In this document: positions 3,549 to 21,172 of the stretch, in pieces
How positions within the stretch are numbered: position 1 is the stretch's first letter
Layout: the number at the start of each line of letters is the position of its first letter
Source: a bacterium
Lineage (GTDB): Bacteria; Desulfobacterota; Binatia; Binatales; Binataceae
Length of the DNA: 64,000 nt
NCBI GenBank assembly: GCA_014896235.1
Contig: JADBKU010000018.1
Location: forward strand, 13,986 to 77,985
Direction: 5' to 3'
The notes under the pieces: generated by a model
What the model was told of the DNA's origin: nothing
Seen by the model: the letters and a program-made list of their open reading frames with translations, nothing else
Database searches by the model: none
Position numbers and translations under genes: made by a program

Positions 3549-3573
3549 TCCCAAACGAGGACGAATCAATCCG

Positions 3574-5929: not shown

Positions 5930-8900
5930 TTATTCGGAGCGAAGCGCGCAGGCGCGGGTCGGCGGTTCGCTTCCGCCAGGCTGGCTCGCGGCGATCTTCG
6001 CGGGCGATACGATCAGCCGCTCCGGATCGATCCGCGTCTTCAAATAGGTGCGCACCGCTTCCGCCCGCGCCCGCCCCAGTCCGGGCAAATCGGCGGCGGA
6101 TACTTTCATGTTGGCGACCAGCAGCTTTTCCATCTCGGCCGGCGGCAGCGATTTCGCCATCCCGAGAAAATCGCGCGGCTTGTCGGGAATATCCGCCGCC
6201 TTGTACACCTGCTTGAGATACTTGTCGTATTCGCCGGTCGTAATCTGGAGATCGTCGAGGTTCACGTTCTCCTGTCCACTATCCTCGGCCTTGCGCTTGC
6301 GCACCAGGTAATCGACCTTGGCCTCGCACAGTCCCGGTTGGTCCAGCGACGGATCGACCACGCCGGTGATGTTGAGCTTCAAGGCGGAGCGCTGTTTGAG
6401 CGCCGCCGCTACCTCGTCGAGTTTCTTGCGATCGTCCGCGTTCAGCCGCGCGAAGCCCGGCTTGAACCCCACGTACGACAAGCCCTCGGCGCTGCCGCCG
6501 CCCGGCAGCGCCGAGGCCAGCAGTTTGAAGGGCGAGGTGATCGCCTTCATGATCAGGTTCTTGAAGGCGTACCAGATGACGCTGCCGAGGCTGAATTGCG
6601 GATTGTTGAGCGACCCCGAAACGGGAATGTTCAGATCGATCCGGCCCTGCGAATCCTTCAAGATCGCAACCGCCAGCCGCACCGGCAAATTGTAAACGCT
6701 CGGCTGCGGAACCTTGTCGCCAAAAGTGAGCTGATCGATCCGGATATGGTTCTGCGCGGTCAGATTGCGCTGGTCGAGCAGGTAATGCACATCGACGGTC
6801 AGCGTGCCCTGGGTAATTGGATAGCCCGTGTATTTGGCCGAATATGCGGAAAGGTCGGGCAGTTCGATGCCATTGGCCTTGGCGGTGATATCCAGATACG
6901 CCATCGGCGCCAGCGGGCTAACCGCGCCACTGATGCTGATCGGGGCGTTGCGGTTGACCATTCCGTTCAATGACACGTCCGCGGGCTTGGTCGAATCCGT
7001 GCCAAACTCGCCGATTTTGCCGGTCAAATCGGTCAAGTCCGCTGAATAGTTCGGCCGAATGAAGTTGTCGGTGTAGTTCGCTTCCCCGCCAGCCAGCACG
7101 ATCTCGCCAATCCTGATGTCGGCCGGCAGCGGCTTCGGCGGCGCGGCAGGCGCCTGCTGACCGGCGCCCGCCGCTTGCGGCGCCGGCGCGGGGGGCGGAC
7201 TCGGCGCGGGCGCAGCCACGGTTCCGTGCGCGCGCGTCAGCGAAGTCGGCGCCGCCTGCGGATTCGCCATGATATCGCTCAGGTTGAGCTTGCCGTCGCG
7301 ATTCAGAATGACGCGCGCGTAAAAGTCGTCGAAGGCGATCGCGCCCAGATGAATGCGCGGCTTTCCTTCGCCCATCGCAAAATCGATTCGCTCGAACCTG
7401 AGCGCGCGCCAGCGCGCGAACAGATCGCGCGTCAGCTTGTCGAGCATCCGCACGTCGCCGAGCGTCACGTCGCCGCGATAACTGATCCGCATCGCGCGCC
7501 GCTCCTGCGCGACGCGCACCGCGCCGCTGCTGCTGAGCATCGCGCGCGCGACAACCGCATTCATCCGCGCCGCCAGCACGGCGTTGGCCGGAGTCAGATC
7601 GAGGCGCCGCGTCACAACCCGCAAATTCGCCTTGAGCGGCTTGACCGCGGCGTCGCCCGTGATTTTGAGCGTGCCGCGCCGGTTGACGGTCGCGCCGATC
7701 GCAACGCCGAACGGTTTGGCGAAATTGCTGGTGACGTCTTTCAGATCGATATTGAGCGGCGCGATCGTCGCCCGCAATTCCGGCCGCTCGGTTTCGTCGC
7801 GCAGGGTGATCGCGGTTTTGTCGAACGCGACCGTCTTTATCTGGAATTGCCATTGCGGCGCTTTCGCCGTTGGCATGGCGGGCTTCCTTGCCGCGCGCCG
7901 CCGCTCCGGACGGCGCGGCGCGCGTGCGCGGCGCGGATGCGGACGGCCCCGGCGCGCTACGTGCGATTCGCTTTGCGTCGATTTGAGCAGCGACTCGAGG
8001 TTCAACCGGCCGCGCCGATCGCGAACGACCTCGACGCTGATTCCGTCCGTGCTCAGGCGATCGACGGTCGCCTGATGGGCCTGCAGGTCGGCCATCGCAA
8101 GTTGCGCGCCGATGCTCGTCCATCGGATCGGCTGCTGGCCGCGCTCTGGAAGCTGGATTTCAAAGCCGTCGAGCGACGCCTGCGCAGGCTCGACGTGAAG
8201 GTTGAACTTGCCCGGCGCATAGTCCGCTTTGACATTGGCGCTGGCGTTGACTTTGCCGGCCGCGATTTTGCCCGCAAGGATCGACTGCGCGAATCCCTGT
8301 AAGGCGGGAACGTCGATCTGCGACAGCGTTAGCTGGGTCGTCGCCGCGGAGCCTGCCAAATCCAGCGCGCCCTTTGCCGCGATCGCGCCGCCGCCGCTCA
8401 GCGTTGCGCCAAAGCTGTAGGGAATCGGCGCGCCAGCGCCGAGATGAAAATCGCTGACGTGCGCCGCGATCGATTGCATCGCGGTATTGACCGGCGCCGG
8501 CATCTGATTGTCCTGCAGGTTCACAGCGCCGTTGGTCACGTCGATCGAAACGACCTGCAAATCAAGCGCGGCTTTGCCTGGAGCGGCTGGCGCTCCGGCT
8601 TGAGCAGGCGGCGCGGGGGCGCCAGATGGCGCCGCGGGCGCGGCCTGGACCAGGGATGGATTTGACGTGACGGGACTGGCGCCGACCGCCACAGCCGGAG
8701 CACGCATGGCAGCTCCCGGGGGCGGCGCCGGACTCGAGGTGGCGCCAGATGGCGCCGCTGGCGCAGGCGTGAACCCGACGCCGGCCGCCGGCGGCGTCGA
8801 TTGCGGCGGCGCTTCGCTCGAAGACGCCAGTCGCGAAAAATTCGTCGTTCCATCGGCGTTGAGCGTCAAACTGGCCTTTAAGCCATCCAATTTAATCGCC

Positions 8901-9880
8901 GCCAGGTGCACATAATTGTGGAGCGGCTCGACGTTGTTAAGCACCACCAGCAGTCGATTGAATCCGACCAGCGGCTGGCCGGATTGATCGCGTACGTCGA
9001 GCTGATCGAGCCGCACCCTGCCCCCGATTCGAATTTGCGGGCCTTGGGTCGCTTGAACAAAATGAATCAGCAAATAGGTCGATAACGCGCCATGCGGCAT
9101 CGTGATCGGCAATTTGCGCGGAACATAGGCAAGATACTTCGAGATTTCGAGCGAACGCAGGTTTAGAACAAGTTCAGACTCCGGCTCGGCGCCGAACGGC
9201 CGCGCCGTGCCCGCCATCGCCAGCTTGCTTCCATCGACGACCATCGCCACATACGGCTTGACGTAAACCTTCACATACGCGGGAAGATTCGCGATAAACG
9301 GCACGTCGATCCGGAGATTCTGAACCGTATGGCGCTGGCCGAGCACCTGGTCGTCAAAATTGATAGCGCCGCCGCTGATTTGAATATTCGAAACCGAGAA
9401 ATGGAACGGCTTGCTCGGTGGCGAGGCCGCCGACGCGGGCTTGGGCGGCGGGATCAAATCCGAAAAATTGAAGGTGTTCGGCGCGGTTCGGACGATATTT
9501 ATCGTCGGATTCGTTATCGCGACCTCCTCAACGACCGGGGCGAGGCGCCACAGCGAATTCCAGGAGGCCTCGACGCCCAAGTGACCGATTTCAACGAAGG
9601 CGCCGCCGCCACTGCGCCTGGCGACCGCGAGCTTGTCGATTTCCAGGCGCAGACTGTACGGATTGAACGCGATTTCGCCCACGCCGACTTGCCGCTTGAG
9701 GCTTTTCGCGACCGATCCGGTCAGTACATGCCGCAGGATTGCGGGAACGCCGAAAAAGCCAAAGCCGGTATAAATCACCAGCGCGGCGACGATTCCGATC
9801 GTCCATCGGCGAACGCGCCGCGATTCAGGCAATCGTTTCGCTTTTTCGCTCGCGCGCCGGAAGATTTCTCGTAATGCCAC
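5930..9880 (-). CDS. AsmA-family/DUF748-type giant envelope protein (outer-membrane biogenesis, TamB/AsmA-like)
   Basis: 1316 aa. N-terminal TM anchor (WTIGIVAALVIYTGFGFFGVPAIL), long beta-rich body, several Pro/Ala-rich low-complexity linkers, C-terminal conserved block. The architecture is typical of the AsmA/DUF748 family. Confidence 0.55.
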   Translation of the reverse strand: MALREIFRRASEKAKRLPESRRVRRWTIGIVAALVIYTGFGFFGVPAILRHVLTGSVAKSLKRQVGVGEIAFNPYSLRLEIDKLAVARRSGGGAFVEIGHLGVEASWNSLWRLAPVVEEVAITNPTINIVRTAPNTFNFSDLIPPPKPASAASPPSKPFHFSVSNIQISGGAINFDDQVLGQRHTVQNLRIDVPFIANLPAYVKVYVKPYVAMVVDGSKLAMAGTARPFGAEPESELVLNLRSLEISKYLAYVPRKLPITMPHGALSTYLLIHFVQATQGPQIRIGGRVRLDQLDVRDQSGQPLVGFNRLLVVLNNVEPLHNYVHLAAIKLDGLKASLTLNADGTTNFSRLASSSEAPPQSTPPAAGVGFTPAPAAPSGATSSPAPPPGAAMRAPAVAVGASPVTSNPSLVQAAPAAPSGAPAPPAQAGAPAAPGKAALDLQVVSIDVTNGAVNLQDNQMPAPVNTAMQSIAAHVSDFHLGAGAPIPYSFGATLSGGGAIAAKGALDLAGSAATTQLTLSQIDVPALQGFAQSILAGKIAAGKVNASANVKADYAPGKFNLHVEPAQASLDGFEIQLPERGQQPIRWTSIGAQLAMADLQAHQATVDRLSTDGISVEVVRDRRGRLNLESLLKSTQSESHVARRGRPHPRRARAPRRPERRRAARKPAMPTAKAPQWQFQIKTVAFDKTAITLRDETERPELRATIAPLNIDLKDVTSNFAKPFGVAIGATVNRRGTLKITGDAAVKPLKANLRVVTRRLDLTPANAVLAARMNAVVARAMLSSSGAVRVAQERRAMRISYRGDVTLGDVRMLDKLTRDLFARWRALRFERIDFAMGEGKPRIHLGAIAFDDFYARVILNRDGKLNLSDIMANPQAAPTSLTRAHGTVAAPAPSPPPAPAPQAAGAGQQAPAAPPKPLPADIRIGEIVLAGGEANYTDNFIRPNYSADLTDLTGKIGEFGTDSTKPADVSLNGMVNRNAPISISGAVSPLAPMAYLDITAKANGIELPDLSAYSAKYTGYPITQGTLTVDVHYLLDQRNLTAQNHIRIDQLTFGDKVPQPSVYNLPVRLAVAILKDSQGRIDLNIPVSGSLNNPQFSLGSVIWYAFKNLIMKAITSPFKLLASALPGGGSAEGLSYVGFKPGFARLNADDRKKLDEVAAALKQRSALKLNITGVVDPSLDQPGLCEAKVDYLVRKRKAEDSGQENVNLDDLQITTGEYDKYLKQVYKAADIPDKPRDFLGMAKSLPPAEMEKLLVANMKVSAADLPGLGRARAEAVRTYLKTRIDPERLIVSPAKIAASQPGGSEPPTRACALRSE

Positions 9881-10533: not shown

Positions 10534-11187
10534 ATGAAATCGTGGCGGCGATGCTTGATTATTGTGCCGGTGCTGGCGGGACTGGCCTCAGCGTTACTTC
10601 TCAGTTGCGGCGGAGGCGGAAGCAGCGGCATAACGCCCACGATCATCCCAACTTCGCTCTTTGCGGTCTTCGTCTGTTCGGGAGCGCCGCCCACGCCGAC
10701 ACCCACGCCAACGCCAACCAAGGGCGCAACCAAAACGCCAACGCCCACGCCGACGCCGCAATGTTCGCCGGTTACGTCCGCGTCGATCTGCATACCGAAT
10801 ACGAACAACGCGTTCTGCCAAACCGCGCCAACGCCGCCTACGTCGCTCCAGTTCAACGCGCAAGGCGCCTTTACCACCCATAATCCCAAAGAGCCGTACA
10901 AATACCGCGACGTTACGAACAGCTCGGCATGGAATCCGTTCCCCGAGAGCGGAGATATCACGGCGCTGCTGAGCTACGTAACGAATGGCGTGTTCGTCGC
11001 GCTGCAGCCGGTCGGTTCCGCGGGATGCGCCTGCTTTAACGTGACCGACGCCGGAATTCCCAGCCAAAGCGTGCTGGTTGGAGTTAACCAGGACGTATCG
11101 AACTGCGCGTTCACCTGTCCACAGATTCCCACGCCCACTCCGAAGGCGAGCGCTTCCGCCACGCAAGATTCGCGCTTTGCGCCTTAG
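10534..11187 (+). CDS. Lipoprotein with Pro-Thr-rich linkers and multiple Cys
   Basis: Signal peptide plus lipobox (LLLSC|GGGG). (PT)n tandem repeats at about 10681-10770. A mirror ORF on the minus strand (GVGVGV...) is a repeat artefact. Confidence 0.5.
   Translation: MKSWRRCLIIVPVLAGLASALLLSCGGGGSSGITPTIIPTSLFAVFVCSGAPPTPTPTPTPTKGATKTPTPTPTPQCSPVTSASICIPNTNNAFCQTAPTPPTSLQFNAQGAFTTHNPKEPYKYRDVTNSSAWNPFPESGDITALLSYVTNGVFVALQPVGSAGCACFNVTDAGIPSQSVLVGVNQDVSNCAFTCPQIPTPTPKASASATQDSRFAP
10681..10770 (+). repeat. Tandem CCNACN (Pro-Thr) coding microrepeat
   Basis: acgccgacacccacgccaacgccaacc...acgccaacgcccacgccgacgccg encodes PTPTPTPTPTK..TPTPTPTP. Confidence 0.6.
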
Positions 11188-11343: not shown

Positions 11344-11364
11344 GTGTCGGCCATTGCGGCAACG

Positions 11365-12057
11365 ATGGAACGGCAAGCCAGGCGCGAGCAGGTATTGCAT
11401 CACGCGAAGCACATCTTCGCGCGCAAGGGATACCATCGCACCAACATCGCCGACATCATTTCGCGGGCGCGGATCGCGCGCGGAACCTTTTATCTCTATT
11501 TTCAGAACAAGCGCGACATTTTCGAAGAGTTGCTGTCGCAAACGCTGCGCGAGCTGCGCGAACGAATTCAGCGCCTGCGGGTTGGCCCCGGCCAGCCGAA
11601 TCCCGCCGAGCAATTGCGCGCCAATTTGCGGCGGGTGCTCGCTTTCGTGCTTGACGAACGCGAATTGACGGACATTCTGCTCAATCATTCGACCGGTTTC
11701 GATCGGGAGCTTGACGAGCAAATTGTGGATTTTTATGAGCGCGTCACGGATCAGATCCAGCGCTCGCTCGATCTCGGCATCGAAATGAACCTGGTGCGGA
11801 AATGCGACACGCGGGCGGTCGCCTATTGCATCCTGGGGGGCATCAAGGAAATCGTCGGCCAACTATCGCGCAACCAGCGCGACGACGTCGCCGTCCTGGC
11901 GGAGGAGATTCTTGATTTCGGGCTGCGCGGCGTCGCTCGTCCGGAGCTGCTCCAGACGGTTGTCAAGGAAGCGGCGGCCGGCGGTTGTCAGGCAAGCGCA
12001 GCCGGCGCGGAGACGACGGCGGAGGCGGGCCATTTTTTTCGTCCGAAATTAGACTGA
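11365..12057 (+). CDS. TetR/AcrR-family transcriptional regulator
   Basis: N-terminal HTH (ARKGYHRTNIADIISRARIARGTFYLYFQNKRDIF). An alternative GTG start at 11344 is possible. Confidence 0.8.
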   Translation: MERQARREQVLHHAKHIFARKGYHRTNIADIISRARIARGTFYLYFQNKRDIFEELLSQTLRELRERIQRLRVGPGQPNPAEQLRANLRRVLAFVLDERELTDILLNHSTGFDRELDEQIVDFYERVTDQIQRSLDLGIEMNLVRKCDTRAVAYCILGGIKEIVGQLSRNQRDDVAVLAEEILDFGLRGVARPELLQTVVKEAAAGGCQASAAGAETTAEAGHFFRPKLD

Positions 12058-12058
12058 C

Positions 12059-12883
12059 ATGTCAGTTCTAAAAGGCGACAGCCGAACGCATGGCCGGCGG
12101 CGCGCCGCCGCGACCGCCAACGGCAAAACGCATCCGCGCCGCGCGCTCGCGTTCTACGACGTTGACGGCACCTTAATCGATTTGAATCTGCTCCACTCGG
12201 CGCTTTTCGTTTTCGGCAATATCGGCGAATGGAGCGGCCGAATCGGCTATCTCGCCAGCTTCGCCGCGAGACTGCCGTCGCTTTATCTCGCTGAACGCCG
12301 CGATCGCTATCTGCTCAATATCGCGCTTTTCGAGGCCTTCAAGGGCGTCTCCCGCGATCGCCTGTTTTCGCTGGGCGAGGAATATTGCGATCGCGTGATG
12401 ATCGGCCATCTCTATCCGCGCGCCGCCGAACTTATTGAAGCGAACCGCGCGGCGGGGCTCGAACCGGTACTGGTGACAGGCTCGCCGGATTTTATCGTCG
12501 CGCCGTTCGCCGAGCGGCTGGGCATCAAGTCGTGGGCCGCGAACCGGCTGGTCTTCAGCCGCGGGCGAGCCACCGGACGCCTGCACGCGCCGGTGATGGC
12601 TGGCGACGCCAAAGCGGAATGGTGCGCGGAATATTGCGCGCGCCACGGAGTCGGACTTGCCGATTGCTGGGGCTACGCGGATTCCCATTACGACCTGCCG
12701 TTTCTGGCCGTGATGGGGCATCCGGTTGCGGTCAATCCCGACCGGCGCCTGGCGGCGATCGCGGCCGCGCGCCAATGGCCGTTGCTTCGTTTCGATAAGG
12801 GGGAACCGCGGCGCACGCTGGGCGGAATCGACCGCGCCGCGGTCGGCGAATGGCTTGAGAGGAAACTTAATGGCGCGGCCTGA
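12059..12883 (+). CDS. HAD-IB family hydrolase (phosphoserine phosphatase-like)
   Basis: FYDVDGTL motif I, VLVTGSPD motif II, GDAKAEW Lys region, YADSHYDLPFL and AVNPD C-terminal motifs typical of HAD-IB. 2 nt after the tetR stop. Confidence 0.7.
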   Translation: MSVLKGDSRTHGRRRAAATANGKTHPRRALAFYDVDGTLIDLNLLHSALFVFGNIGEWSGRIGYLASFAARLPSLYLAERRDRYLLNIALFEAFKGVSRDRLFSLGEEYCDRVMIGHLYPRAAELIEANRAAGLEPVLVTGSPDFIVAPFAERLGIKSWAANRLVFSRGRATGRLHAPVMAGDAKAEWCAEYCARHGVGLADCWGYADSHYDLPFLAVMGHPVAVNPDRRLAAIAAARQWPLLRFDKGEPRRTLGGIDRAAVGEWLERKLNGAA

Positions 12884-14510
12884 AGCGAAACTCAAGGAAC
12901 TTAAGCCGGCGGACCTGAAGCGCGAGGTGGGATCGCGGCGCGATCTAGTGGTGACGCTCAGCCGCCGTTCCGAGCCGCGGCTGATCGCCTACGGCGACGA
13001 GTTTCTGTACGAAAAGCTGCCGGCGGGAACGCGCGTCGTCTATCCCCCGCCGCCGCTCGACGCGCTGCCCGATCCGGACACCGCGATCCGCTACGCCCTG
13101 CTCCATCCGCTCAACGCCGATCCGCTGTTCGCGCAGCTCAATCCTAACATGCGCGTCACCATCGCGATCGACGACATCAGCCTGCCGCTGCCGCCGATGC
13201 GCCGTCCCGATATCCGCGAACGGCTGCTCAACCAGGTGCTGCAAACGCTGGCGGATTACGGCGTCGATGACGTTCATCTGATCGTCGCCACCGCGCTCCA
13301 TCGCCGGATGACCGAAGCGGAAATCCGCCGGATGGTGGGCGAGCGCGCTTTCAAGCAGTTCTGGCCGGAACGGCTCTACAACTTCGACGGCGAGGATCGG
13401 GCGAACCTCACGATGCTCGGCAAGACCGATCATGGCGAGGAGGTGTGGCTGTCGCGACGCGCGGCGGAATCGGATTTGCTGATTTATCTGAATATCAACC
13501 TGGTGCCGATGGACGGCGGGCATAAATCGGTCGCCGTCGGACTCGCGCCCTATCAAAGCCTGCGCCACCATCATAATCCCGCCACGCTTCGCGACAGCCA
13601 CTCATATATGGACCCGACGCGCTCGGCGCTGCATAGTTCGGCGAACCGGATGGGCCGGATAGTCAATCGCGAAGTGAATGTATTTTCGATCGAGACCGCC
13701 GTGAATACCCAGATGTACGGCGGGATGCTCGACTTCCTGCAAAAGAATGAAGATCGCTTCAGCGACTGGGATCGGATGCGGCTCAAGGGCTTCCGCTGGA
13801 CGCTCGGCGGAATGTCGAACGAATTGCGCCGCCAGGTGATGCATCAGTACGCGGCGCCATACGGGATGACGGGGGTGTGGGCGGGCGAGACCGAAACCGT
13901 CCATCGGCAGGCGCTGGCGCGGGTGTTCCAGCAGTACGCGGTTCCGGTAAAGGGACAATCCGACGTGCTGATCGTCGGCGTGCCCTATATCTGTCCCTAC
14001 AACGTCAATTCGATCATGAATCCCGTCCTCGTGCAGTGCACCGGGATGGGCTACCTGTTCAACATGTACCGCAACAAGCCGCTGGTGAAACCCGGCGGCA
14101 CGATGATTATCTGCCATCCGCTGCGCGACGAATTTCATCCTGAGCATCATCCGAGCTACATCGAATTTTTCCATCGATGCCTGGCCGAGACGACCGACTC
14201 GATCGAACTGGAAAAGCGGTTCGAAGCCGAGTTCGCGCGCAACCCGACCTATATCCACATGTACCGTTACGGACACGCCTATCACGGCGTGCATCCGTTC
14301 TACATGTGGTACTGGGGCGAGCCGGCGCGCCAGCACGTGGGGCGGGTGATCGCGGCCGGATGCCAGGAGCCGGAGGTCGCCGCCCGGCTGGGATGGGAGT
14401 CCGCGGACACGCTCGACGAGGCGATTGCGATGGCCACGTCCGAGCATGGACGGTCGGCGACAATTACCTATCTGCACTTGCCGCCGCTGGTGATCGCCGA
14501 TGTCGAATAG
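12870..14510 (+). CDS. LarA-family (lactate racemase-like, DUF2088 N-domain) protein
   Basis: 546 aa. Conserved blocks (VTIAIDDISLPLPP, LIVATALHRRMTEAE, MDGGHKSVAVGL, HHHNPATL) resemble nickel-pincer-dependent LarA-family racemase/epimerases. Overlaps neighbours by 14 and 11 nt. Confidence 0.55.
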   Translation: MARPEAKLKELKPADLKREVGSRRDLVVTLSRRSEPRLIAYGDEFLYEKLPAGTRVVYPPPPLDALPDPDTAIRYALLHPLNADPLFAQLNPNMRVTIAIDDISLPLPPMRRPDIRERLLNQVLQTLADYGVDDVHLIVATALHRRMTEAEIRRMVGERAFKQFWPERLYNFDGEDRANLTMLGKTDHGEEVWLSRRAAESDLLIYLNINLVPMDGGHKSVAVGLAPYQSLRHHHNPATLRDSHSYMDPTRSALHSSANRMGRIVNREVNVFSIETAVNTQMYGGMLDFLQKNEDRFSDWDRMRLKGFRWTLGGMSNELRRQVMHQYAAPYGMTGVWAGETETVHRQALARVFQQYAVPVKGQSDVLIVGVPYICPYNVNSIMNPVLVQCTGMGYLFNMYRNKPLVKPGGTMIICHPLRDEFHPEHHPSYIEFFHRCLAETTDSIELEKRFEAEFARNPTYIHMYRYGHAYHGVHPFYMWYWGEPARQHVGRVIAAGCQEPEVAARLGWESADTLDEAIAMATSEHGRSATITYLHLPPLVIADVE

Positions 14511-17500
14511 GAACGGAGCTTCGTCCGGCGCGGGTCCGCGCCGCAACGGCGCATCCGCGCGCGCGGCGAGCGGCGCGATGCCGCCGCTCGCGGAAATTTT
14601 CGCCGGGCGGGAATTGCTGATTACGGGCGCGACCGGTTTTCTCGGCAAAGTGCTGATCGCGATTCTCCTGCGGCATCATCCCGAGCTCGCCCGGCTGCAT
14701 CTGCTGATTCGCGGCGATCGCAAATCGAGCCATAACCGCTTCCGGCGCGAAATTCTCGAATCGCCCGCGCTCGGCCCCCTGCGCGAACATCTGGGCGCCA
14801 GCTTCGACCGCTATATCGAGGAGCGGGTCGCGATCGTGCCGGGCGACATCGCTGAACCGGGCCTGCTCAGCGACGAAGCGCCGGCGTTCGAGCGCGCGCA
14901 TATCGACGCGGTCATCCATTGCGCCGGCCTGGTGAATTTCGACGCGTCGCTGGCCAAGGCGCTCGAAGTCAACGCCATCGGCGTCGAAAACGTGGTCGCC
15001 TTCTGCTGCGCGCGCGGCGCCGCCCTGCTCCACGTTTCGACCTGTTACGCGGCGGGCGCCGCCGACGGCCATCGCTACGAGGACGACATCCCGATCGACT
15101 GGCGGCCGAACGGCCGCAAGGGCTTCGAGCTCGCGCGCGAAATGCGCGACGCGCGCGCGGAAATCGCGCGCGTCGAGGCGGAAGCTTCCGATCAAGCGCG
15201 AATGGCGCAGTTCCGGATGGCGGTCGAGGCGGAATCCGCCGACGCGGACGACGAGCGCGGCCACGGCGAAAGCGGCGAGCGCGCGATCGACGCGCGGCGC
15301 AAACAATGGATCGAAGAACGCTTGAAGGAAGTGGGCAAGCGGCGCGCGCGGATGTGGGGCTGGCCGAACACCTACAGCTACACCAAGAGCCTCGGCGAAC
15401 AGATTGCGCTCGCGGCGCGCGACCGCATCGCGGTGACGGTGGCGCGGCCGTCGGTGATCGAAAGCGCGCTCGCCGATCCGATTCCCGGATGGAACCAGGG
15501 CGTCAACACCAGCGCGCCCCTGACCTATCTGTCGGGACGCGGCTATCGCTTCTATCCAGCGCGGGGCGACCTGGTGCTCGACGTGATTCCGGTCGATCTC
15601 GCCGCGCACGCGATGGTTCCGATTCTCGGCGCGCTGTTGAGCGGCCGGCACAAGCCGATTTACCAGCTCTGCACGTCGGACGTGAATCCGCTGCCGATGC
15701 GCCGCCTGGTGGAATTGACCGCCCTCGGCAATCGGCGGGAGCATCGCCGGCAGGGCGGGCCGATGGGCAAGCTCGCGCGCCATCTGGAAGCCGTCATCGT
15801 TTCGCATCAGACCTACGAACTGGTCAGCCAGCGGCTGCCGGCGTTGCTGAAGAGCGCGGCGGCGGCGGCGGAATCGGTGATGGGCGATCGTCCGGCGGCG
15901 CGCAAAATCGCCGAGCGGGTCGAACGGCTGGTCGCGGACACGGAACTGGCGCGCTCGCTGGTCGAAGTCTATCTGCCGTATATCCAGGACCTGGTTTATA
16001 CCTTCCACGGGCGCAATATCCGCGAGCTGTACCGGGAACTTAAGCCGGCCGACGCGCGCGCCCATCCGTTCCATCCCGAGCGCATCGATTGGGCCGACTA
16101 CTGGATCAACGTCCATCTGCCGGGATTGCGCCGGCATATTTTCCCGCAGCTCGAATTGCATACGCGGGCGCGGCCGCGCGGCGGTTTCCGCTTCCGCACG
16201 CTGGTCGAGATGCTCGACCGGGCGGCCGAACGCTACGGCGCGCGGCCCGCGCTCGAGGCGCGCCTGCCGTCGGGCCAGCGCGCGGGCATGACCTATCGCG
16301 AACTCCGCGATCGCGCGTATCGGGCGGGCCTGATGCTGGCGTCGCGCGGGGTCGAACCGGGCGATCGCGTTCTGCTGATTGCGGAGAATTCGCCCGAGTG
16401 GGTGATCGCATACTTCGCGATAATTTACGCCGGCGCGATCGCCGTACCGCTGGACCATCTAATTGCGCCGGAAGAACTGGGGCCGATCGCGCGCATCGCC
16501 GAACCGGGCGCCGCGCTGGTTTCCGCCGGATGCGCGAAGCGGCTGGGCGCGGCGATCAGCGCGGCGGCGCCGGGAATCGCCGAGCTAGGACTGGACGAGC
16601 TGAATCGGCCGTTCATTCTCAGCGCGAAAGCGAAGACTCCGCCCGCGCTCGAGCGCAAATCGATCGCGTCGATCGTTTTCACCTCCGGCACCACCGGCGC
16701 GCCCAAGGGCGTGACGCTGACCCACGGCAACTTCACCGCCGAAATTGCGATGCTGGCGCGGGTGTTCACGCTCGGCGCCGACGACGTCGTGCTCTCGCTG
16801 CTGCCGCTGCACCATACCTTCGAGTTCACCTGCGGGATGCTGTTGCCGCTGGCGAGCGGCGCGCGGATCGTTTACCCGCAGGGCGTGGACGCCGCGAGCC
16901 TGTCTCGCACGCTGGCCGACGTGCGGCCGACCGCGCTGGTGGGAGTGCCGGCGCTGTGGGAGGCCGTGCACCGCCGCATCATGGACGAAGTCGAAGCGCG
17001 CGGGCCTTTCGCGCACGCCGCGTTCGAGCGGATGCGCGATCTGAATCGCCGGCTCGACGAAGATTACAACTTCAATCTCGGCACGCTGCTGTTCCGCCCG
17101 GCGCATGCCGCATTAGGCGGACGGCTCAAGCTCGCGGTGAGCGGCGGCGCGGCGCTGCCGCAACGGGTCGCGCGCTTTTTCAACGAAATCGGCATCCGGC
17201 TGCTTGAAGGCTACGGCCTGACCGAATCGGCGCCGGTGCTGAGCGTCGCGCGGCCCGACGAACCGCTGGTTCCAGGGTCGGTCGGCAAGCCGCTGCATAA
17301 CGTCGAGGTCAAATTGGCCATGGCCGAGGGCGGCGTCGGCGAGATTATCGCGCGTGGGCCGAACGTGATGGCGGGCTATTACCGCAATCCCGCGGCGACC
17401 GCCGAAGTGCTGCGCGACGGCTGGCTGCATACGGGCGATCTCGGCCGTTTCGACGAAGACGGACGGCTCTATATCGTCGGCCGGGCGAAGGACGTAATCG

Positions 17501-18909
17501 TCGATTCGGGCGGCAACAATATCTACATCGACGAGCTTGAAGAGGCGTACGGCCACTCGCCGTTCCTGAAAGAGCTGGCCGTGGTCGGATTGCGCGCCGG
17601 CCAGGGCGAGCAGGTCGCGGCGCTGGCCGTTCCGGCCTACGCGCGCGGCGAAAGCCGGCGCGCCGTCGAGGACAAGCTGCGCGCGCATTTCGAAAAAGTC
17701 GGCGCGGCGCTCAGTCCGCACAAGCGCATCCGCATCCTGCGCTTCACCGACGCCGAGCTGCCGCGCACGCGCACGCGCAAGGTGCGGCGCGCCGAGGTCG
17801 CGGCGATGCTGCGCCGGATGGTGGACAGCGACGAGCGCGAGCGCGGCGCCGTCAGCGCGGAGGTCGAACCGTGGCTGGCGCAGGCGCTGGCGCAGGTCGC
17901 GAGCGGCGGCGCGGAAATCACGCCGGCGACGCGGCTGATCGAAGACCTCGGATTGGATTCGCTGGCGCTGGCCGAACTGGCGGAGCATATCGCCGTCAAA
18001 TCGGGCCGCGAGCTCAGCGCGGAGGAGCTTTCGAACGTCGCGACCGTCGCGGAGTTGCAGCGAATCGCGGGCGAAGCCGGCAATCGCCCGAAGCTGCCGT
18101 CATATGCGCGCTTCGCGAAACCGTACACAATCGAACTGCCGGCGCCGTTGCGGCGGCTGGGCGAGGCGGCGCTCCGGCGATCATTCGACGCGGCGGTCGA
18201 CCGCTGGCTGAAGCCGCTCGTGATGGGCGCCGGGAATATTCCGGCGAACCGCAACGTGCTGGTCGTGGCGAACCATTCGAGCCATCTCGATTTCGCGCTC
18301 GTCGGCCACGCGTTGGGAGCGATGGGCCGCAACCTGGTGGTGCTCGCGGCCAAGGATTATTTCTTCAACACGCCGGCGCGGCGAACGCTCGCGGCGAACT
18401 TCACGCGGCTGATCCCGTTCGACCGCGAACGCGCACAGCTCGAATCGCTCGACGAGGCGCTGGCGGAACTGGCGGCAGGCCGCAGCGTGCTGATGTTTCC
18501 CGAAGGCACGCGCTCGCCCGACGGCCTGATCCACGAGTTCAAGAGCGGCGCGGGCTACCTTGCGTTGCATAGCGGATGCGACGTGCTGCCGATCCGAATC
18601 GACGGCACGCATGAGGTGCTCGGCAAGGGCCAGCTTCTGCCGCGGCGCCATCCGGTGGAAATTCGCATCGGGCGGCCGATCGGAGCGGAGGAACTGCGCG
18701 GCCTCGCCCGCGACGGCGAAAGCGCGGGCGCGTATCGCAAGCTCGCCGAGCGGATGCGCGACGCAGTCGTCGGCCTCGGCGCGCGCCCGGCGAAGCGCAT
18801 CAAACCTTTGGCGGCGATCGCCGGGCCTTCCAGCGACGCGGCGGAAATAGCCGCCGCGCCCGGCGAACGCGCCCGCGGCCGTCGTCCGGCGCGCCACGCG
18901 AAAGGTTGA
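14500..18909 (+). CDS. Four-domain lipid megaenzyme: fatty acyl-CoA/ACP reductase (NAD-binding, male-sterility type), AMP-dependent acyl ligase, acyl carrier protein, 1-acylglycerol-3-phosphate acyltransferase (ElbD-like)
   Basis: aa about 35-500: LLITGATGFLGKVL plus YSYTK (YxxxK), the thioester-reductase/FAR fold. aa about 560-1080: AMP-binding (FTSGTTGAPKG, GYGLTES, YRTGDLGRFDEDGRLYIVGRAKD). aa about 1110-1190: PP-binding (DLGLDSLALAEL). aa about 1230-1400: LPLAT (NHSSHLD giving HX4D, FPEGTRS). 1469 aa. Confidence 0.8.
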   Translation: MSNRNGASSGAGPRRNGASARAASGAMPPLAEIFAGRELLITGATGFLGKVLIAILLRHHPELARLHLLIRGDRKSSHNRFRREILESPALGPLREHLGASFDRYIEERVAIVPGDIAEPGLLSDEAPAFERAHIDAVIHCAGLVNFDASLAKALEVNAIGVENVVAFCCARGAALLHVSTCYAAGAADGHRYEDDIPIDWRPNGRKGFELAREMRDARAEIARVEAEASDQARMAQFRMAVEAESADADDERGHGESGERAIDARRKQWIEERLKEVGKRRARMWGWPNTYSYTKSLGEQIALAARDRIAVTVARPSVIESALADPIPGWNQGVNTSAPLTYLSGRGYRFYPARGDLVLDVIPVDLAAHAMVPILGALLSGRHKPIYQLCTSDVNPLPMRRLVELTALGNRREHRRQGGPMGKLARHLEAVIVSHQTYELVSQRLPALLKSAAAAAESVMGDRPAARKIAERVERLVADTELARSLVEVYLPYIQDLVYTFHGRNIRELYRELKPADARAHPFHPERIDWADYWINVHLPGLRRHIFPQLELHTRARPRGGFRFRTLVEMLDRAAERYGARPALEARLPSGQRAGMTYRELRDRAYRAGLMLASRGVEPGDRVLLIAENSPEWVIAYFAIIYAGAIAVPLDHLIAPEELGPIARIAEPGAALVSAGCAKRLGAAISAAAPGIAELGLDELNRPFILSAKAKTPPALERKSIASIVFTSGTTGAPKGVTLTHGNFTAEIAMLARVFTLGADDVVLSLLPLHHTFEFTCGMLLPLASGARIVYPQGVDAASLSRTLADVRPTALVGVPALWEAVHRRIMDEVEARGPFAHAAFERMRDLNRRLDEDYNFNLGTLLFRPAHAALGGRLKLAVSGGAALPQRVARFFNEIGIRLLEGYGLTESAPVLSVARPDEPLVPGSVGKPLHNVEVKLAMAEGGVGEIIARGPNVMAGYYRNPAATAEVLRDGWLHTGDLGRFDEDGRLYIVGRAKDVIVDSGGNNIYIDELEEAYGHSPFLKELAVVGLRAGQGEQVAALAVPAYARGESRRAVEDKLRAHFEKVGAALSPHKRIRILRFTDAELPRTRTRKVRRAEVAAMLRRMVDSDERERGAVSAEVEPWLAQALAQVASGGAEITPATRLIEDLGLDSLALAELAEHIAVKSGRELSAEELSNVATVAELQRIAGEAGNRPKLPSYARFAKPYTIELPAPLRRLGEAALRRSFDAAVDRWLKPLVMGAGNIPANRNVLVVANHSSHLDFALVGHALGAMGRNLVVLAAKDYFFNTPARRTLAANFTRLIPFDRERAQLESLDEALAELAAGRSVLMFPEGTRSPDGLIHEFKSGAGYLALHSGCDVLPIRIDGTHEVLGKGQLLPRRHPVEIRIGRPIGAEELRGLARDGESAGAYRKLAERMRDAVVGLGARPAKRIKPLAAIAGPSSDAAEIAAAPGERARGRRPARHAKG

Positions 18910-18926
18910 GCGGCGCACGGCGCATC

Positions 18927-19781
18927 ATGAACATGTCCCGCGCAATCGCGCTCGCAGTGGCCGCCGTGCTGGCCGCATCGATCGCGCCGCCAGCGCATGC
19001 GTGGGATTCGCGAACGCATCGCCTGATCACGCGGCTGGCGGTCGACGCGCTGCCCGCGGGATCGCCGCGCGCGACGCTTGCGGCCAACGAAGCGCGACTG
19101 CAGGAGGCGTCGGTCGCGCCGGACGAAGTCTTGCGTCCGCTCTATGGCAAGTCCGAAGCGATCAAGCACTATCTGGATCTCGAATACTACGGCGCCGATC
19201 CCTTCGCGGCGCTCAATCCCGATATTCATGTGATGGAACGGGAGTACGGATGGCGCACGCTGGAGCAATCGGGCACGCTGCCGTGGACGATCGAGGAAGA
19301 GTCGGCCGATCTCGCGAACGCATGGCGCGGCGGCGATTGCGCGAATGCGATCCAGACCGCCGGCTACCTGGCGCATTACGTCGGCGACGCGACCCAGCCG
19401 CTCCATTCGACCACCCACTTCGACGGCTACGCGCAAGATCGCGGCGTCCATCGGCGCTTTGAGAGCGCGGTCGATTACAACGTCTGGCGCATCGAGCAGA
19501 TGGCTCGCCCGGAAGTTCAGCTCGCGCCGATCGTGTCGCCGTGGGACGCGGCTATCGCGGAACTCCGCGAGAGCCATCCGCTGGTACAGGCGGTAATCAA
19601 CGCCGACCGTACGGCGCGCGCGGAAACCGGACTTCGGCGCGGGGCCTATTTCGATCGCGTGTTGATGGCCGAGGAGGCGCCGATGGTCGCGCGCCAGATA
19701 GCGATCGCCGCTTCAACGCTCGGTTCGATCTGGCGATATGAATGGACGCAGGCCGGCCAACCGTCTGCATGCGCGGAATAG
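18927..19781 (+). CDS. Secreted S1/P1-nuclease / zinc phospholipase C superfamily hydrolase
   Basis: Signal peptide (MNMSRAIALAVAAVLAASIAPPAHA). Mature N-terminus WDSRTH carries the Zn-ligand W1/H6. HYVGDATQPLH closely matches the P1 nuclease HFIGDMTQPLH Zn-binding signature. The upstream gene's stop overlaps the alternative TTG start at 18906. Confidence 0.6.
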   Translation: MNMSRAIALAVAAVLAASIAPPAHAWDSRTHRLITRLAVDALPAGSPRATLAANEARLQEASVAPDEVLRPLYGKSEAIKHYLDLEYYGADPFAALNPDIHVMEREYGWRTLEQSGTLPWTIEEESADLANAWRGGDCANAIQTAGYLAHYVGDATQPLHSTTHFDGYAQDRGVHRRFESAVDYNVWRIEQMARPEVQLAPIVSPWDAAIAELRESHPLVQAVINADRTARAETGLRRGAYFDRVLMAEEAPMVARQIAIAASTLGSIWRYEWTQAGQPSACAE

Positions 19782-19888
19782 TCGCGCGCTTCTGGACCGG
19801 CCGGGCGACGGTTAGAATATCAGTGGACGGATAGCGCGGTTGAGAACGTAAATCGCGCCGCCGCATCGGATTGGAAATTTTGGCGCTG

Positions 19889-20422
19889 ATGGACTGGTGG
19901 ACCCGGAAAGACGACGATCGGCCGCGGCCGACCCGCGGCGATATTCGCCCGTCGGTGAGCGAAATCACCGGCTATCTGCTGGTCGGCGAATACCCGCGCG
20001 TCGCCGATATCGAATGGCTCAAGCGCGAGCATCGCATAACCGCGATCCACAATCTTCAGGACGACGAGGATTTGCGCATCAACGCGCTCGATATCGCCGC
20101 GCTCGAAGCGGCCGCCGCCCGGCACGGAATCGCGTATACGCGCACGCCCATCCATGACGGCAGTTCCGACGATGTCGCGCGCAGGCTGGAAGCGGCGCTG
20201 GCGGACTTGCACGCGCTGGTCGCCGGCGAGCGGCGCGTATATCTGCACTGCAACGCCGGCTTGAATCGCGCGCCGACGCTCGCGATCGCATACTTGCGAG
20301 CCTATCGCGGAATGTCGCTCGAAGAGGCGCTGGCGCTGGTCAAAGCGCGGCGCGCATGCGGGCCGTTCATGACCGTGCTCGAAAATCATTTCGGTCCGCG
20401 CCACCTCAAACCCTCAGCGTAG
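19889..20422 (+). CDS. Dual-specificity (Cys-based) protein/lipid phosphatase, CX5R type
   Basis: VYLHCNAGLNRAPT matches the HC(X)5R(S/T) P-loop of DSP/PTP-fold phosphatases. 177 aa. Confidence 0.7.
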   Translation: MDWWTRKDDDRPRPTRGDIRPSVSEITGYLLVGEYPRVADIEWLKREHRITAIHNLQDDEDLRINALDIAALEAAAARHGIAYTRTPIHDGSSDDVARRLEAALADLHALVAGERRVYLHCNAGLNRAPTLAIAYLRAYRGMSLEEALALVKARRACGPFMTVLENHFGPRHLKPSA

Positions 20423-20440
20423 CCGGCCGCGGCGCCGCAG

Positions 20441-21166
20441 ATGGCGAGTCAACGGATTCTCCGCGGATGCGCATGGGGCGTTCATCTACTGACCGCGTCG
20501 GGCGCGGCGGCGGGGTTGATAGCGATCGACCGCACGACGCGCGCGGACTGGCGCGGCGCGTTTATCGCGATGGCGGTCGCGGTCGCGATCGATTCTTTCG
20601 ACGGGCCGCTGGCCCGCGCGCTTCGCGTACGCGAACGCATCCCCGTCTTCGACGGCGCGACGCTCGACAATATCGTGGACTATCTCAATTACGTCGCGGT
20701 TCCCGCCTTCCTGATGCTGCGGGCGAAGCTGCTGCCGGCGGGAAACGTCGGAACGATACTCGCCGCGTTCGTGATGATCGCGAGCGCATACGGCTTCAGC
20801 CGGACCGACGCGAAGACCGAGGACAACTACTTCCGCGGCTTCCCGTCTTACTGGAACCTGGTCGCGCTCTATATTTTCTGCCTCGGATTTTCACGCACGG
20901 CCAACGGCGTCATCGTCGGCGCGCTGGCGCTGATGGTGTTCGTTCCAATCAAATATATTTATCCGAATCGCACCGAGCTGATGCGTCCGCTGACCCTCAC
21001 GCTCGCCGCGATATGGGGCGTCGCCACCGTCGCGATGCTGCCGATGCTGCCGAAACATAACGATCTTCTGCTTTACACCTCGCTCGCCTTCGTCGTTTAC
21101 TATTTCGCGATGTCATTCGCCCTTCACGTTCATCCGGCGCGCGTCGCCGCTCGCCGTCCGCGTTAG
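20441..21166 (+). CDS. pcs: CDP-alcohol phosphatidyltransferase, phosphatidylcholine synthase (Pcs)-type
   Basis: DSFDGPLARALRVRERIPVFDGATLDNIVD fits DG(X)2AR(X)12G(X)3D(X)3D, the extended-spacing variant reported for Pcs (the classical CDP-OH motif has X8). 241 aa with multiple TM helices, the same length as rhizobial Pcs. Confidence 0.55.
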   Translation: MASQRILRGCAWGVHLLTASGAAAGLIAIDRTTRADWRGAFIAMAVAVAIDSFDGPLARALRVRERIPVFDGATLDNIVDYLNYVAVPAFLMLRAKLLPAGNVGTILAAFVMIASAYGFSRTDAKTEDNYFRGFPSYWNLVALYIFCLGFSRTANGVIVGALALMVFVPIKYIYPNRTELMRPLTLTLAAIWGVATVAMLPMLPKHNDLLLYTSLAFVVYYFAMSFALHVHPARVAARRPR

Positions 21167-21172
21167 GCCGCG

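Follow-up and report, generated by a model that had tools for sequence, protein, structure and literature searches.

A LarA-superfamily protein at the ElbC position of a Binataceae lipid operon

Gene order and boundaries of the operon

We analysed a 64-kb stretch of Binataceae DNA, here called the window, within which all coordinates are given. It contains an operon in which genes for a TetR-family regulator, ElbB (a HAD-IB phosphatase), ElbC (a LarA homologue) and ElbD are followed by head-group genes (Table 1). The LarA homologue comprises 546 residues, counted from the ATG at 12870 in an open reading frame spanning 12726 to 14510. A Shine-Dalgarno sequence, GAGAGG, lies 5 nt 5' of this ATG, and at least 50 close homologues are also 546 residues long, with the N-terminus MARPEAKLKELK; the nearest database protein is 90% identical.

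Table 1. Features of the operon and of the ElbC-type gene, as positions in the window
Feature	Position	Strand	Evidence
TetR-family regulator	11344..12057	+	Pfam TetR_N, TetR_C_24
HAD-IB phosphatase, ElbB equivalent	12059..12883	+	TIGR01490, 110.6 bits (cut-off 98.3)
LarA-superfamily protein, ElbC equivalent, LarAH14/15/16 family	12870..14510	+	Pfam, NCBIfam, AF2, Foldseek
Asp102 codon (LarA Asp72, NPN ribose binding)	13173..13175	+	phmmer alignments
His144 codon (LarA His108, sole catalytic His kept)	13299..13301	+	Alignment, conservation
Lys219 codon (LarA Lys184, covalent NPN tether)	13524..13526	+	Alignment, conservation
His235 codon (LarA His200, fourth nickel ligand)	13572..13574	+	Alignment, conservation
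His472-Gly-Val-His475 of AYHGVHPF motif	14283..14294	+	Alignment
ElbD-type megaenzyme, 1469 aa	14500..18909	+	Pfam NAD_binding_4+Sterile, AMP-binding, PP-binding, Acyltransferase
Zn-dependent phospholipase-C-like protein	18906..19781	+	Pfam Zn_dep_PLPC, E 3e-10
Dual-specificity-type phosphatase	19871..20422	+	Pfam DSPc, E 8e-17
CDP-alcohol phosphatidyltransferase (head-group attachment)	20441..21166	+	Pfam CDP-OH_P_transf, E 5e-6, 27.4 bits (cut-off 22)

The first-pass annotation had described this gene as embedded in a lipid operon and overlapping a HAD-IB phosphatase gene on one side and an acyl megaenzyme gene on the other. Both overlaps are borne out: the LarA homologue shares 14 nt with the HAD-IB gene and, counting from the first ATG of the megaenzyme, 11 nt with the megaenzyme gene. 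The second overlap hinges on start-codon choice because homology to relatives starts around residue 27–30. The lipid setting also holds, with the HAD-IB phosphatase, the megaenzyme and the head-group genes surrounding the LarA homologue. That annotation identified neither the elb ether-lipid operon nor the earlier tabulation of this gene context (Desguin et al. 2020, Table S1).

The TetR gene, which gives a weak FadR-like NCBIfam match far below the cut-off and whose position is conserved in 13 loci of Binataceae type, is probably the first of the operon, since a single nucleotide separates its stop from the HAD start. The HAD-IB protein retains its DVDGT nucleophile motif. The megaenzyme combines an alcohol-forming FAR, an acyl-AMP ligase, an ACP and an AGPAT-like acyltransferase; its GATGFLG, YSYTK, TSGTTGAPK, GLDSL and HSSHLD motifs are intact, and residues 30–548 match a fatty acyl-CoA reductase (7eoz, E 2e-47). 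Further downstream, the phospholipase-C-like gene occupies the same position in loci L001, L004, L005, L013 and L081, and the phosphatidyltransferase gene is syntenic in 11 loci. The DSPc phosphatase, whose gene is likewise found in synteny in 11 loci of Binataceae type, may have a lipid head-group phosphate as its substrate. An Rfam scan of the window gave no match.

The HAD–LarA homologue–ElbD synteny spans Binataceae, Acidobacteriota, Myxococcota, Planctomycetota and Gemmatimonadota. Of 140 testable loci, 130 have a co-directional HAD gene no more than 1.5 kb upstream of the LarA homologue; of 94 testable for ElbD, 84 have it downstream. Single-linkage clustering had offered the gene at 3331–4479 as ElbE; this candidate was dropped as a generic NDP-sugar epimerase/dehydratase, and tblastn with a true ElbE (from locus L042) gave no hit either in the window or in Binataceae loci.

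Fold and active-site residues

The product of the flagged gene matches Pfam Lar_N (E 2e-36) and, over residues 27–546 (profile positions 2–520), NCBIfam NF052592, "NPN-dependent hydroxyacid isomerase, LarAH14/15/16 family" (847.2 bits against a cut-off of 740), NPN being the nickel-pincer nucleotide. Its AF2 model (pLDDT 91.7) is closest in Foldseek to the LarA-like enzyme 9q3k (E 4e-34; TM 0.86, normalised by target length), and matches at E ≤ 1e-15 are exclusively LarA-family structures (TM by target 0.64–0.86). Pfam, AF2 and Foldseek thus agree on a two-domain LarA (DUF2088) fold. By these sequence comparisons, the window gene is a member of the nickel-pincer LarA enzyme superfamily, as had been proposed for it.

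LarAH groups 14, 15 and 16 were set out by Desguin et al. (2020), who entered their function as unknown and tabulated their gene context (Table S1). The window gene shares with them COG0204, COG0560 and COG3320/COG1022/COG0451 neighbours, and it has the neighbourhood attached to NF052592, with HAD-IB (COG0560) and AGPAT-type acyltransferase (COG0204) functions beside it. With a full-length match above the curated cut-off, it does not differ from these groups in kind; it is a new Binataceae member of an already-known, uncharacterised family. The "LarAH15" of a 2024 JBC paper, a Phytophthora gluconate epimerase, follows another numbering and is separate from this family.

Residues were mapped through phmmer alignments to 9eid, 9q2u and 9q3j. 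The first-pass annotation had proposed an alignment check of the tether Lys and the two catalytic His residues. The tether Lys, the nickel-ligating His, the ribose-binding Asp and the first catalytic His are all present, and 160 of the 162 related loci examined retain all four. Asp102 is invariant across 109 homologues, His144 sits in an ALHRR motif, and Lys219, in GGHK, pairs with Lys183 of LarAIp and Lys195 of LarASp. The second catalytic His expected of LarA is not there: the Lys219 loop, NINLVPMDGGHK, is four residues shorter and lacks an equivalent of His174, the aligned residue being Asn210 (versus LarAIp) or Val212 (versus LarASp). This His is likewise missing from the LarAH14/15/16 family, with groups 14 and 15 described as lacking it (PMC12611868). 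Arg75, which binds both the phosphate of NPN and the carboxylate of the substrate, is replaced by Leu105. Most homologues have Leu, Val or Ile at this position, which is followed by an inserted PLPPMxxPDxR segment containing the invariant Arg116. Lys298, which in LarA sits with Gln295 on helix alpha-11 and is missing from some LarA-homologue groups (Desguin et al. 2020), is probably also missing here, its position corresponding by motif register alone to Ser381 (Y377-N-V-N-S381 versus Y294-Q-x-x-K298). Towards the C-terminus, His475 aligns with LarASp His401, which is located by a bound ligand, and the surrounding AYHGVHPF motif persists even in relatives that have lost the NPN residues.

His174, Arg75 and Lys298 are among the residues that define 2-hydroxy-acid racemisation (PMC12611868, PMC7583248). 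Without the second catalytic His and the carboxylate-binding Arg, and probably without Lys298, the window protein does not appear to be a conventional 2-hydroxy-acid racemase. The NCBIfam name and the annotation of homologues in source databases as lactate racemase would fit an NPN-dependent racemase of lactate, malate or another 2-hydroxy acid, co-transcribed with lipid genes by chance. We consider this very improbable, given the three absent substrate or catalytic residues (Lys298 with the reservation above) and the inactivity of Frankia LarAH14 in seven 2-hydroxy-acid racemase/epimerase assays (PMC7583248). Nor is the linkage to lipid genes a matter of chance, since the gene order, with its translational overlap, is conserved in six or more phyla. 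The earlier suggestion had been that an epimerase of a 2-hydroxy acid or of glycerate supplies lipid synthesis. Its lipid connection is strong; its epimerase part is weakened by the same missing residues and the inactive Frankia member.

The nearest solved structures are LarASp and LarABw (9q2u, 9q3k, 9q3j; group-17-like; phmmer E 2e-29). They share with the window protein a length of about 500 residues, an enlarged C-terminal domain, the absence of His174, and the catalytic His, tether Lys, nickel His, a Tyr and the C-terminal His (His475, equivalent to His401). Identity, however, is only about 20%; their invariant Asn corresponds to Val212 or Asn210, their Lys76 to Leu105 and their His306-Tyr307 pair to Pro376-Tyr377, and their neighbours are glycolytic or sugar genes rather than lipid genes. 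On these differences in residues and neighbours, the window protein falls outside the single-His LarA subfamily. Compared with L. plantarum LarA (5HUQ) and the characterised racemases and epimerases, it has the same fold, the NPN-binding Asp, Lys and His and the first catalytic His, but lacks His174, Arg75 and (probably) Lys298. It is about 120 residues longer than LarA, Pfam picks up only its N-terminal domain, and its lipid context differs from their organic-acid or sugar-acid contexts.

Equivalence to ElbC and probable dependence on the nickel-pincer cofactor

The elb ether-lipid operon has been defined in two papers (PMC9131029, PMC13012113). In Myxococcus xanthus, genetics showed that an ElbD route yields alkyl ethers independently of AGPS (PMC9131029); a role in this process was shown genetically for elbD alone and suggested for elbE (PMC9131029). 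ElbC was called a "protein of unknown function" (PMC9131029), was left without assignment (PMC13012113) and appears as a question mark in papers from 2022 to 2026. In the literature searched we found no elbC mutant and, among open papers, none linking ElbC to LarA groups 14–16.

The window gene occupies the same slot as M. xanthus elbC (MXAN_1529), with the HAD gene elbB on one side and elbD, which encodes FAR-ACS-ACP-AT, on the other. As a proxy for MXAN_1529 we used a protein from Corallococcus (Myxococcaceae), whose locus L076 has the order elbB-elbC-elbD-elbE; the protein at the elbC position reaches 837.6 bits against NF052592 and is 54% identical to the window protein. By conserved gene order, and in sequence via this proxy, the window gene is the orthologue of Myxococcus ElbC. 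Unlike elbA–E of M. xanthus, the Binataceae operon includes TetR and head-group genes and lacks elbA and elbE.

The absence of larB, larC and larE from the window, noted in the first pass, was confirmed: hmmscan of about 50 ORFs (those below about 130 residues being partly covered) found no AIRC, Ni_insertion or LarE-type domain, and tblastn with verified Streptomyces LarE, LarB and LarC at E ≤ 1e-3 returned nothing in the 64 kb. None was found in 160 related Binataceae, Acidobacteriota and Myxococcota loci with flanks of up to 10 kb per side. A conserved-neighbour search at 80 genome loci (all-against-all ORF clustering, Pfam) likewise gave no Lar genes; the recurrent clusters were ElbE-type SDR, UPF0182, kinases, KAS III and similar proteins.

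In Streptomyces sp. WMMC500, the FAR-HAD/ADH/LarAH/AGPAT genes are immediately preceded by larE (TIGR00268, 240 bits), larB (NF033503, 238 bits) and larC1+larC2. Actinoallomurus oryzae and Streptomyces sp. NPDC007325 likewise have larE-larB-larC next to their equivalent lipid operon, so that these genes adjoin the orthologous operon in three of the six actinobacterial genomes sampled, and no second Lar_N gene was found within 10 kb of these operons. This arrangement argues for NPN dependence. There is good support, from residue conservation and gene neighbourhoods, for the window protein being NPN-dependent, with larB, larC and larE predicted to lie elsewhere in its genome.

A subset of orthologues is NPN-less: about half of 72 full-length representatives of 50%-identity clusters lack His144, Lys219 and His235 yet retain Arg116, Arg145, His427, His472, His475 and Trp480. 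In the related loci, too, His144, Lys219 and His235 usually disappear jointly where they are lost, as expected of residues that form one cofactor site. NPN-less orthologues have intact ORFs, C-terminal His motifs and an intact TetR-HAD-LarAH-ElbD operon, and therefore point to some NPN-independent role of the protein. Their NF052592 scores (433–701 bits) fall below the cut-off of 740. A large "NPN-less clade" in a neighbour-joining tree was not accepted as a subfamily and is taken as long-branch attraction of independent losses; the NPN-less forms are rare, long-branch offshoots.

In three of four NPN-less cases, which come from related lineages, genes for AGPS, a GNPAT-like acyltransferase and an ApbA-type reductase lie immediately upstream; such an AGPS/GNPAT module accompanies none of 160 canonical loci. 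The FAD_binding_4 neighbour was assigned to AGPS because it matches the mammalian enzyme (4bby) at E 1e-169 over 563 residues; an assignment as GlcD/D-lactate-dehydrogenase type, a frequent neighbour of LarA genes, was discarded, glycolate or lactate dehydrogenases matching at only E 1e-25. Group 16 in Desguin's Table S1 has no FAD-dehydrogenase COG among its neighbours. The association stays at three of four loci, since no further NPN-less orthologues emerged: a metagenome scan for them, seeded with P0074, gave 80 loci, all canonical; a profile from 16 NPN-less representatives retrieved canonical proteins only; and among the matches listed for the NPN-less P0136, whose own contig is too short to inform on AGPS, all 119 of 119 were canonical.

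These forms bear on the idea, raised in the first pass, of a cofactor-independent LarA paralogue: the protein might be a lipid- or substrate-binding or scaffold partner of ElbB and ElbD, or an enzyme built around the C-terminal His cluster, with the NPN residues a relic. The missing larBCE genes in the 64 kb and the 160 related loci, the many NPN-less cluster representatives that still keep their Arg, His and Trp residues, and the persistence of such orthologues within intact operons would all agree with it. Against it stand the four NPN-anchoring residues in the window protein and in nearly all loci checked, the rarity, long branches and sub-threshold scores of the NPN-less forms, and the actinobacterial larE-larB-larC neighbours. 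We judge it quite unlikely; the idea finds no support for the window gene but holds for the rare, fast-evolving NPN-less relatives.

A possible role in ether-lipid synthesis

Taken as a whole, the data are best explained by an ElbC-type LarA homologue of the elb operon that is NPN-dependent and takes part in alkyl-ether lipid synthesis, a reading to which we assign a probability of roughly 0.6. That ElbC works with ElbB and ElbD in alkyl-ether glycerolipid production has good support. As to chemistry, we tentatively suggest a single-base hidden-redox step in which NPN would serve at the C2 hydroxyl of a lipid intermediate based on glycerol phosphate, rather than racemisation of a free 2-hydroxy acid; on balance we hold this suggestion to be doubtful. 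His144 would take the proton from the C2 hydroxyl and the hydride from C2 would be parked on NPN. The transient DHAP-level ketone would permit exchange of the sn-1 ester for a fatty alcohol made by ElbD or, alternatively, reduction of an aldehyde hemiacetal. Return of the hydride to the same face would then give 1-O-alkyl-glycerol-3-phosphate, and ElbC would do at the glycerol-3-phosphate level the combined job of GNPAT, AGPS and alkyl-DHAP reductase. We know of no precedent for ester-to-ether exchange by NPN. The cofactor is able to move hydride on non-acid alcohol and aldehyde substrates (PMC13524815). Binataceae loci are without the ElbE reductase that follows ElbD in other phyla, which counts against the hidden-redox/ether proposal.

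By analogy, ElbC could be an NPN-dependent enzyme that forms or enables the ether bond, a nickel-based, redox-neutral counterpart of the GNPAT/AGPS/alkyl-DHAP-reductase route; this we regard as speculative and improbable as it stands. Both routes give 1-O-alkyl glycerolipids, and the proposed likeness is one of function only: AGPS belongs to the FAD_binding_4 family of FAD enzymes and shares no homology with ElbC.

We consider it unlikely that the protein epimerises or racemises C2 of the glycerol backbone, whether by converting glycerol-3-phosphate into glycerol-1-phosphate or by acting on a lyso-lipid; the same applies to glycerate or phosphoglycerate as the substrate. All LarA homologues characterised so far invert a stereocentre at C2 (PMC7583248, PMC11770544). 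His174 might be replaced as the second acid/base by a residue nearer the C-terminus, for example Tyr377 or His475, both of which are conserved and align with the ligand-site residues Tyr307 and His401 of LarASp. The tight pairing with a HAD-IB phosphatase also suggests a small phosphorylated substrate. Yet His174, Arg75 and probably Lys298 are missing, and epimerisation would leave the AGPS and GNPAT genes beside NPN-less orthologues unexplained. To our knowledge, myxobacterial ether lipids have no need for inverted glycerol stereochemistry.

Our preferred reading, an NPN-dependent ElbC in alkyl-ether lipid synthesis, suggests a nickel cofactor at work in bacterial ether-lipid synthesis. Placing ElbC in the LarA superfamily bears on how the ElbD pathway forms an alkyl ether without AGPS. 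If ElbC is merely accessory, the window protein is no more than a typical representative of an uncharacterised family. If ElbC does form or enable the ether bond with NPN, aerobic bacterial alkyl-ether lipids would need nickel and larBCE; this would cover myxobacterial plasmalogen precursors and perhaps also the ether lipids of subdivision-4 Acidobacteriota that are relevant to brGDGT proxies. The link between ElbC and LarA would account for the LarA homologues of the mostly aerobic Myxococcota and Acidobacteriota, which we found in 15 of 17 and 11 of 16 genomes, respectively, and NPN chemistry would reach beyond small 2-hydroxy acids into lipid biosynthesis.

The operon and its LarA homologue

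The flagged gene begins at ATG 12870, directly preceded by a GAGAGG ribosome-binding site, and encodes 546 amino acids, a length that, like the MARPEAKLKELK start, agrees with the closest homologues. As the first-pass annotation had stated, it is a LarA-family gene embedded in a lipid operon and overlaps both neighbours. The overlaps measure 14 nt with the stop of an HAD-IB phosphatase gene and 11 nt with the first ATG of a gene for a 1469-aa megaenzyme. The megaenzyme comprises an alcohol-forming fatty acyl reductase (NAD_binding_4 and Sterile), an acyl-AMP ligase, an ACP and an AGPAT-type acyltransferase, all with intact catalytic motifs. A TetR gene, probably the head of the operon, ends 1 nt before the HAD gene, and co-directional genes for a Zn-phospholipase-C-like protein, a dual-specificity-type phosphatase and a CDP-alcohol phosphatidyltransferase follow the megaenzyme. 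Together with two further genes, they form what looks like a head-group module, syntenic among Binataceae loci. G+C content of the window is ~65%.

Of the LarA domains, Pfam recognized the N-terminal one only (E 2e-36). The NCBIfam model NF052592 ("NPN-dependent hydroxyacid isomerase, LarAH14/15/16 family"; cut-off 740 bits) matched end to end with 847 bits. An AlphaFold model based on 66 homologues was confident (pLDDT 91.7), and its significant structural matches were LarA-family structures only. Two LarA-like enzymes with a single histidine, 9q3k and 9q3j, ranked highest (E 4e-34; TM by target 0.86), ahead of the Isosphaera and Lactiplantibacillus LarA structures. The flagged gene adds a member to a known, uncharacterized family; neighbor COGs of LarAH groups 14–16 have been tabulated with function "unknown", and no activity was seen for a Frankia member in seven assays (PMC7583248, Tables S1/S3 for the COGs).

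Several other genes in the window merit mention. An AsmA/DUF748/YhdP-like protein of 1316 aa is encoded ~1.5 kb upstream of the TetR gene on the opposite strand, and a LolA homologue a few kb downstream; proteins of the AsmA type have been linked to the transport of lipids to the outer membrane. Between the AsmA-like and TetR genes, a small predicted lipoprotein gene (signal ending LLLSC, Pro/Thr-rich linker) fills a lower-GC gap, a position occupied by a PNPOx-like gene in related Binataceae loci. A Cys/Met-metabolism PLP enzyme gene appears frameshifted near 40130: its N-terminal third is read in the frame that opens at 39592, and ORF 40073-40861 holds the remainder, covering Pfam profile positions 144–380 only. 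This reflects either pseudogenization or an error in sequencing. A CofD-domain (2-phospho-L-lactate transferase family) protein of 649 aa, long for its family, and a luciferase-like monooxygenase encoded nearby may be F420-related; no link of either gene to the LarA homologue was found.

Coordinates of features in the window and in related loci (L-numbers)
Feature	Position	Strand	Remark
CofD-domain gene	135-2084	+	
NAD-dependent epimerase/dehydratase	3331-4479	+	
Luciferase-like monooxygenase	4854-5897	-	
AsmA/DUF748/YhdP-like gene	5930-9880	-	
Small predicted lipoprotein	10534-11187	+	
HAD-IB phosphatase	12059-12883		
ORF containing flagged gene	12726-14510	+	ATG at 12870
ElbD-type megaenzyme	14500-18909		
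Remainder of operon	18906-22916		
Further downstream gene	21173-22129		no Pfam match
Further downstream gene	~22150-22916		DUF7064
LolA homologue	25969-26685	-	
PLP enzyme	39700-40861	+	
larE-larB-larC sets, two Streptomyces and Actinoallomurus	L165 3074-6209; L169 3656-6387; L171 4743-7721		
NPN-less orthologues with AGPS immediately upstream	L081 1816-5035; L082 2-1393; L164 1079-2947		His144, Lys219, His235 lost

Gene order and correspondence to ElbC

The nearest relatives, from Candidatus Binataceae MAGs, share 80–90% identity; canonical homologues (Asp102, His144, Lys219 and His235 all present) at 52–60% identity occur in Acidobacteriota (Pyrinomonadaceae, Blastocatellia), Myxococcota, Planctomycetota and Gemmatimonadota. 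At 130 of 140 testable loci, an HAD gene precedes the LarA homologue on its own strand by no more than 1.5 kb, and at 84 of 94 testable loci a complete ElbD-type gene follows; in loci with unlinked ElbD, the HAD and LarA genes still remain paired. The Corallococcus locus runs from HAD via the LarA homologue and ElbD to an NAD-dependent epimerase/dehydratase, the same order as elbB-elbC-elbD-elbE of the Myxococcus xanthus ether-lipid operon. On this gene order, the flagged gene is the ElbC orthologue. Most alkyl and vinyl ether lipids of M. xanthus require elbD (PMC9131029), and elbC has been termed "a protein of unknown function" (PMC9131029; PMC13012113); no link between ElbC and LarA or the nickel-pincer nucleotide (NPN) was found in the open literature. 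Binataceae elb operons lack ElbE, whereas those of Acidobacteriota and Myxococcota have it. The epimerase/dehydratase encoded elsewhere in the window was at first grouped with ElbE by clustering, yet it is not an ElbE orthologue.

The predicted nickel-pincer cofactor site

Residues were mapped by phmmer alignment to 9eid, 9q2u and 9q3j, with roles taken from PMC12611868.

LarA residues (Lactiplantibacillus plantarum numbering) and their counterparts in the flagged protein
Role	LarA	Flagged protein	Status
NPN ribose binding	Asp72	Asp102	kept
First catalytic His	His108	His144	kept
Covalent NPN tether	Lys184	Lys219	kept
Fourth nickel ligand	His200	His235	kept
Second catalytic His	His174	Asn210 or Val212	absent; loop NINLVPMDGGHK four residues shorter
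NPN phosphate and substrate carboxylate binding	Arg75	Leu105	absent
	Lys298	Ser381 (motif register only)	probably absent

This map agrees with the reported absence of His174 from groups 14/15 (PMC12611868) and with the statement in the literature that H174 and K298 are missing from some groups. In the single-histidine structure LarASp, Tyr307 and His401 line the ligand site; their aligned counterparts here are Tyr377 and His475. Judged from these residues, the protein looks built for holding NPN, not for two-base racemization of 2-hydroxy acids. Epimerization of such acids had been suggested earlier and is only partly supported: the lipid-operon context of that suggestion stands, while the absence of His174, Arg75 and probably Lys298 speaks against the chemistry. 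A conventional 2-hydroxy-acid racemase is highly improbable.

His144, Lys219 and His235 are all kept in 101 of 109 close homologues and are usually lost jointly, as expected if they form one cofactor pocket. Asp102, His144, Lys219, His235, Tyr377, His472 and His475 are kept in 160 of 162 related genomic and metagenomic loci.

No larB, larC or larE, the NPN biosynthesis genes, was found in the 64 kb window by Pfam (~50 ORFs) or by tblastn with verified LarE, LarB and LarC, bearing out the earlier observation, nor in the flanks (up to 10 kb per side) of 160 Binataceae, Acidobacteriota and Myxococcota loci. Actinobacterial NF052592 members (907 bits) reside in an equivalent operon of a FAR-HAD fusion (reductase and HAD phosphatase in one protein), a Zn-ADH, the LarA homologue and an AGPAT. 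In Streptomyces sp. WMMC500, Actinoallomurus oryzae and Streptomyces sp. NPDC007325, a full larE-larB-larC set directly adjoins this operon, and a second LarA gene is absent within 10 kb; such adjacency was not seen in Pseudofrankia or in two MAGs, one of Nocardioidaceae and one of Acidimicrobiia. The three adjoining sets are the strongest evidence in our analysis for NPN use by the family, the NPN dependence of which is well supported, and suggest that larBCE of the present genome probably lie elsewhere in it, a frequent arrangement for LarA homologues. The proposal of a cofactor-independent paralogue, prompted by the missing lar genes, finds no support for the flagged gene, which keeps the NPN residues.

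NPN-less orthologues and a possible reaction

About half of 72 full-length representatives of 50%-identity clusters have lost cofactor residues. These NPN-less forms score 433–701 bits, under the NF052592 cut-off, and a profile built from 16 of them retrieves canonical proteins only; the relatives listed for one homologue, P0136, are canonical throughout (119/119). The NPN-less forms are sporadic long-branch offshoots. Arg116, Arg145, His427, His472, His475 and Trp480 are retained even there and, family-wide (P0121-P0269), are more universally conserved than the NPN ligands, which points to a putative second functional site in the C-terminal domain. A residue of this domain could serve as second base if the protein were a C2 epimerase acting on a glycerol-phosphate or glycerate-type substrate, which, with His174 gone, we consider unlikely. 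Retention of these residues where the cofactor site is lost would also suit a cofactor-independent or scaffolding role, quite unlikely here given the intact NPN ligands and the actinobacterial larBCE sets.

All four NPN-less orthologues placed on contigs lie in a TetR-HAD-LarA-ElbD operon. In three (L081, L082, L164), a true alkyl-DHAP synthase (AGPS; E 1e-169 to mammalian AGPS, 4bby, over 563 residues) is encoded immediately upstream in a divergent unit, which in L081 also contains a GNPAT/GPAT-like acyltransferase and an ApbA-type reductase; no AGPS was seen on the fourth, short contig (L163) or in the flanks of 160 canonical loci. Because L081, L082 and L164 represent related lineages, we regard this association as a functional lead, not a statistic. 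It fits the situation in M. xanthus, where ElbD and AGPS provide alternative routes to alkyl ethers (PMC9131029).

Four parts are constant across phyla: an acyl reductase, an HAD-IB phosphatase, an NPN-type LarA homologue and an AGPAT-type acyltransferase. Enzymes that use NPN hold a hydride taken from the substrate and later hand it back. NPN also handles carboxylate-free alcohol/aldehyde substrates, as in NphT (PMC13524815). For a protein that has a single base, lacks a carboxylate clamp and need not invert its substrate, a hidden redox reaction is the most economical reading. In a glycerol-phosphate lipid intermediate, His144 would remove the proton of the C2 hydroxyl, with hydride passing to NPN; the resulting DHAP-level ketone would allow sn-1 substitution with an ElbD-made fatty alcohol or aldehyde, much as AGPS acts on acyl-DHAP; and hydride return to the same face would yield 1-O-alkyl-glycerol-3-phosphate. 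The HAD enzyme and head-group genes would act after ether formation. Only anatomy, conservation and neighborhoods are observed directly, and we assign this chemical step of ElbC a tentative probability of roughly 0.25–0.3. The analysis joins two literatures, in that ElbC, the unassigned gene product of the bacterial ether-lipid operon, is probably a nickel-pincer-type enzyme, a proposition that is directly testable.
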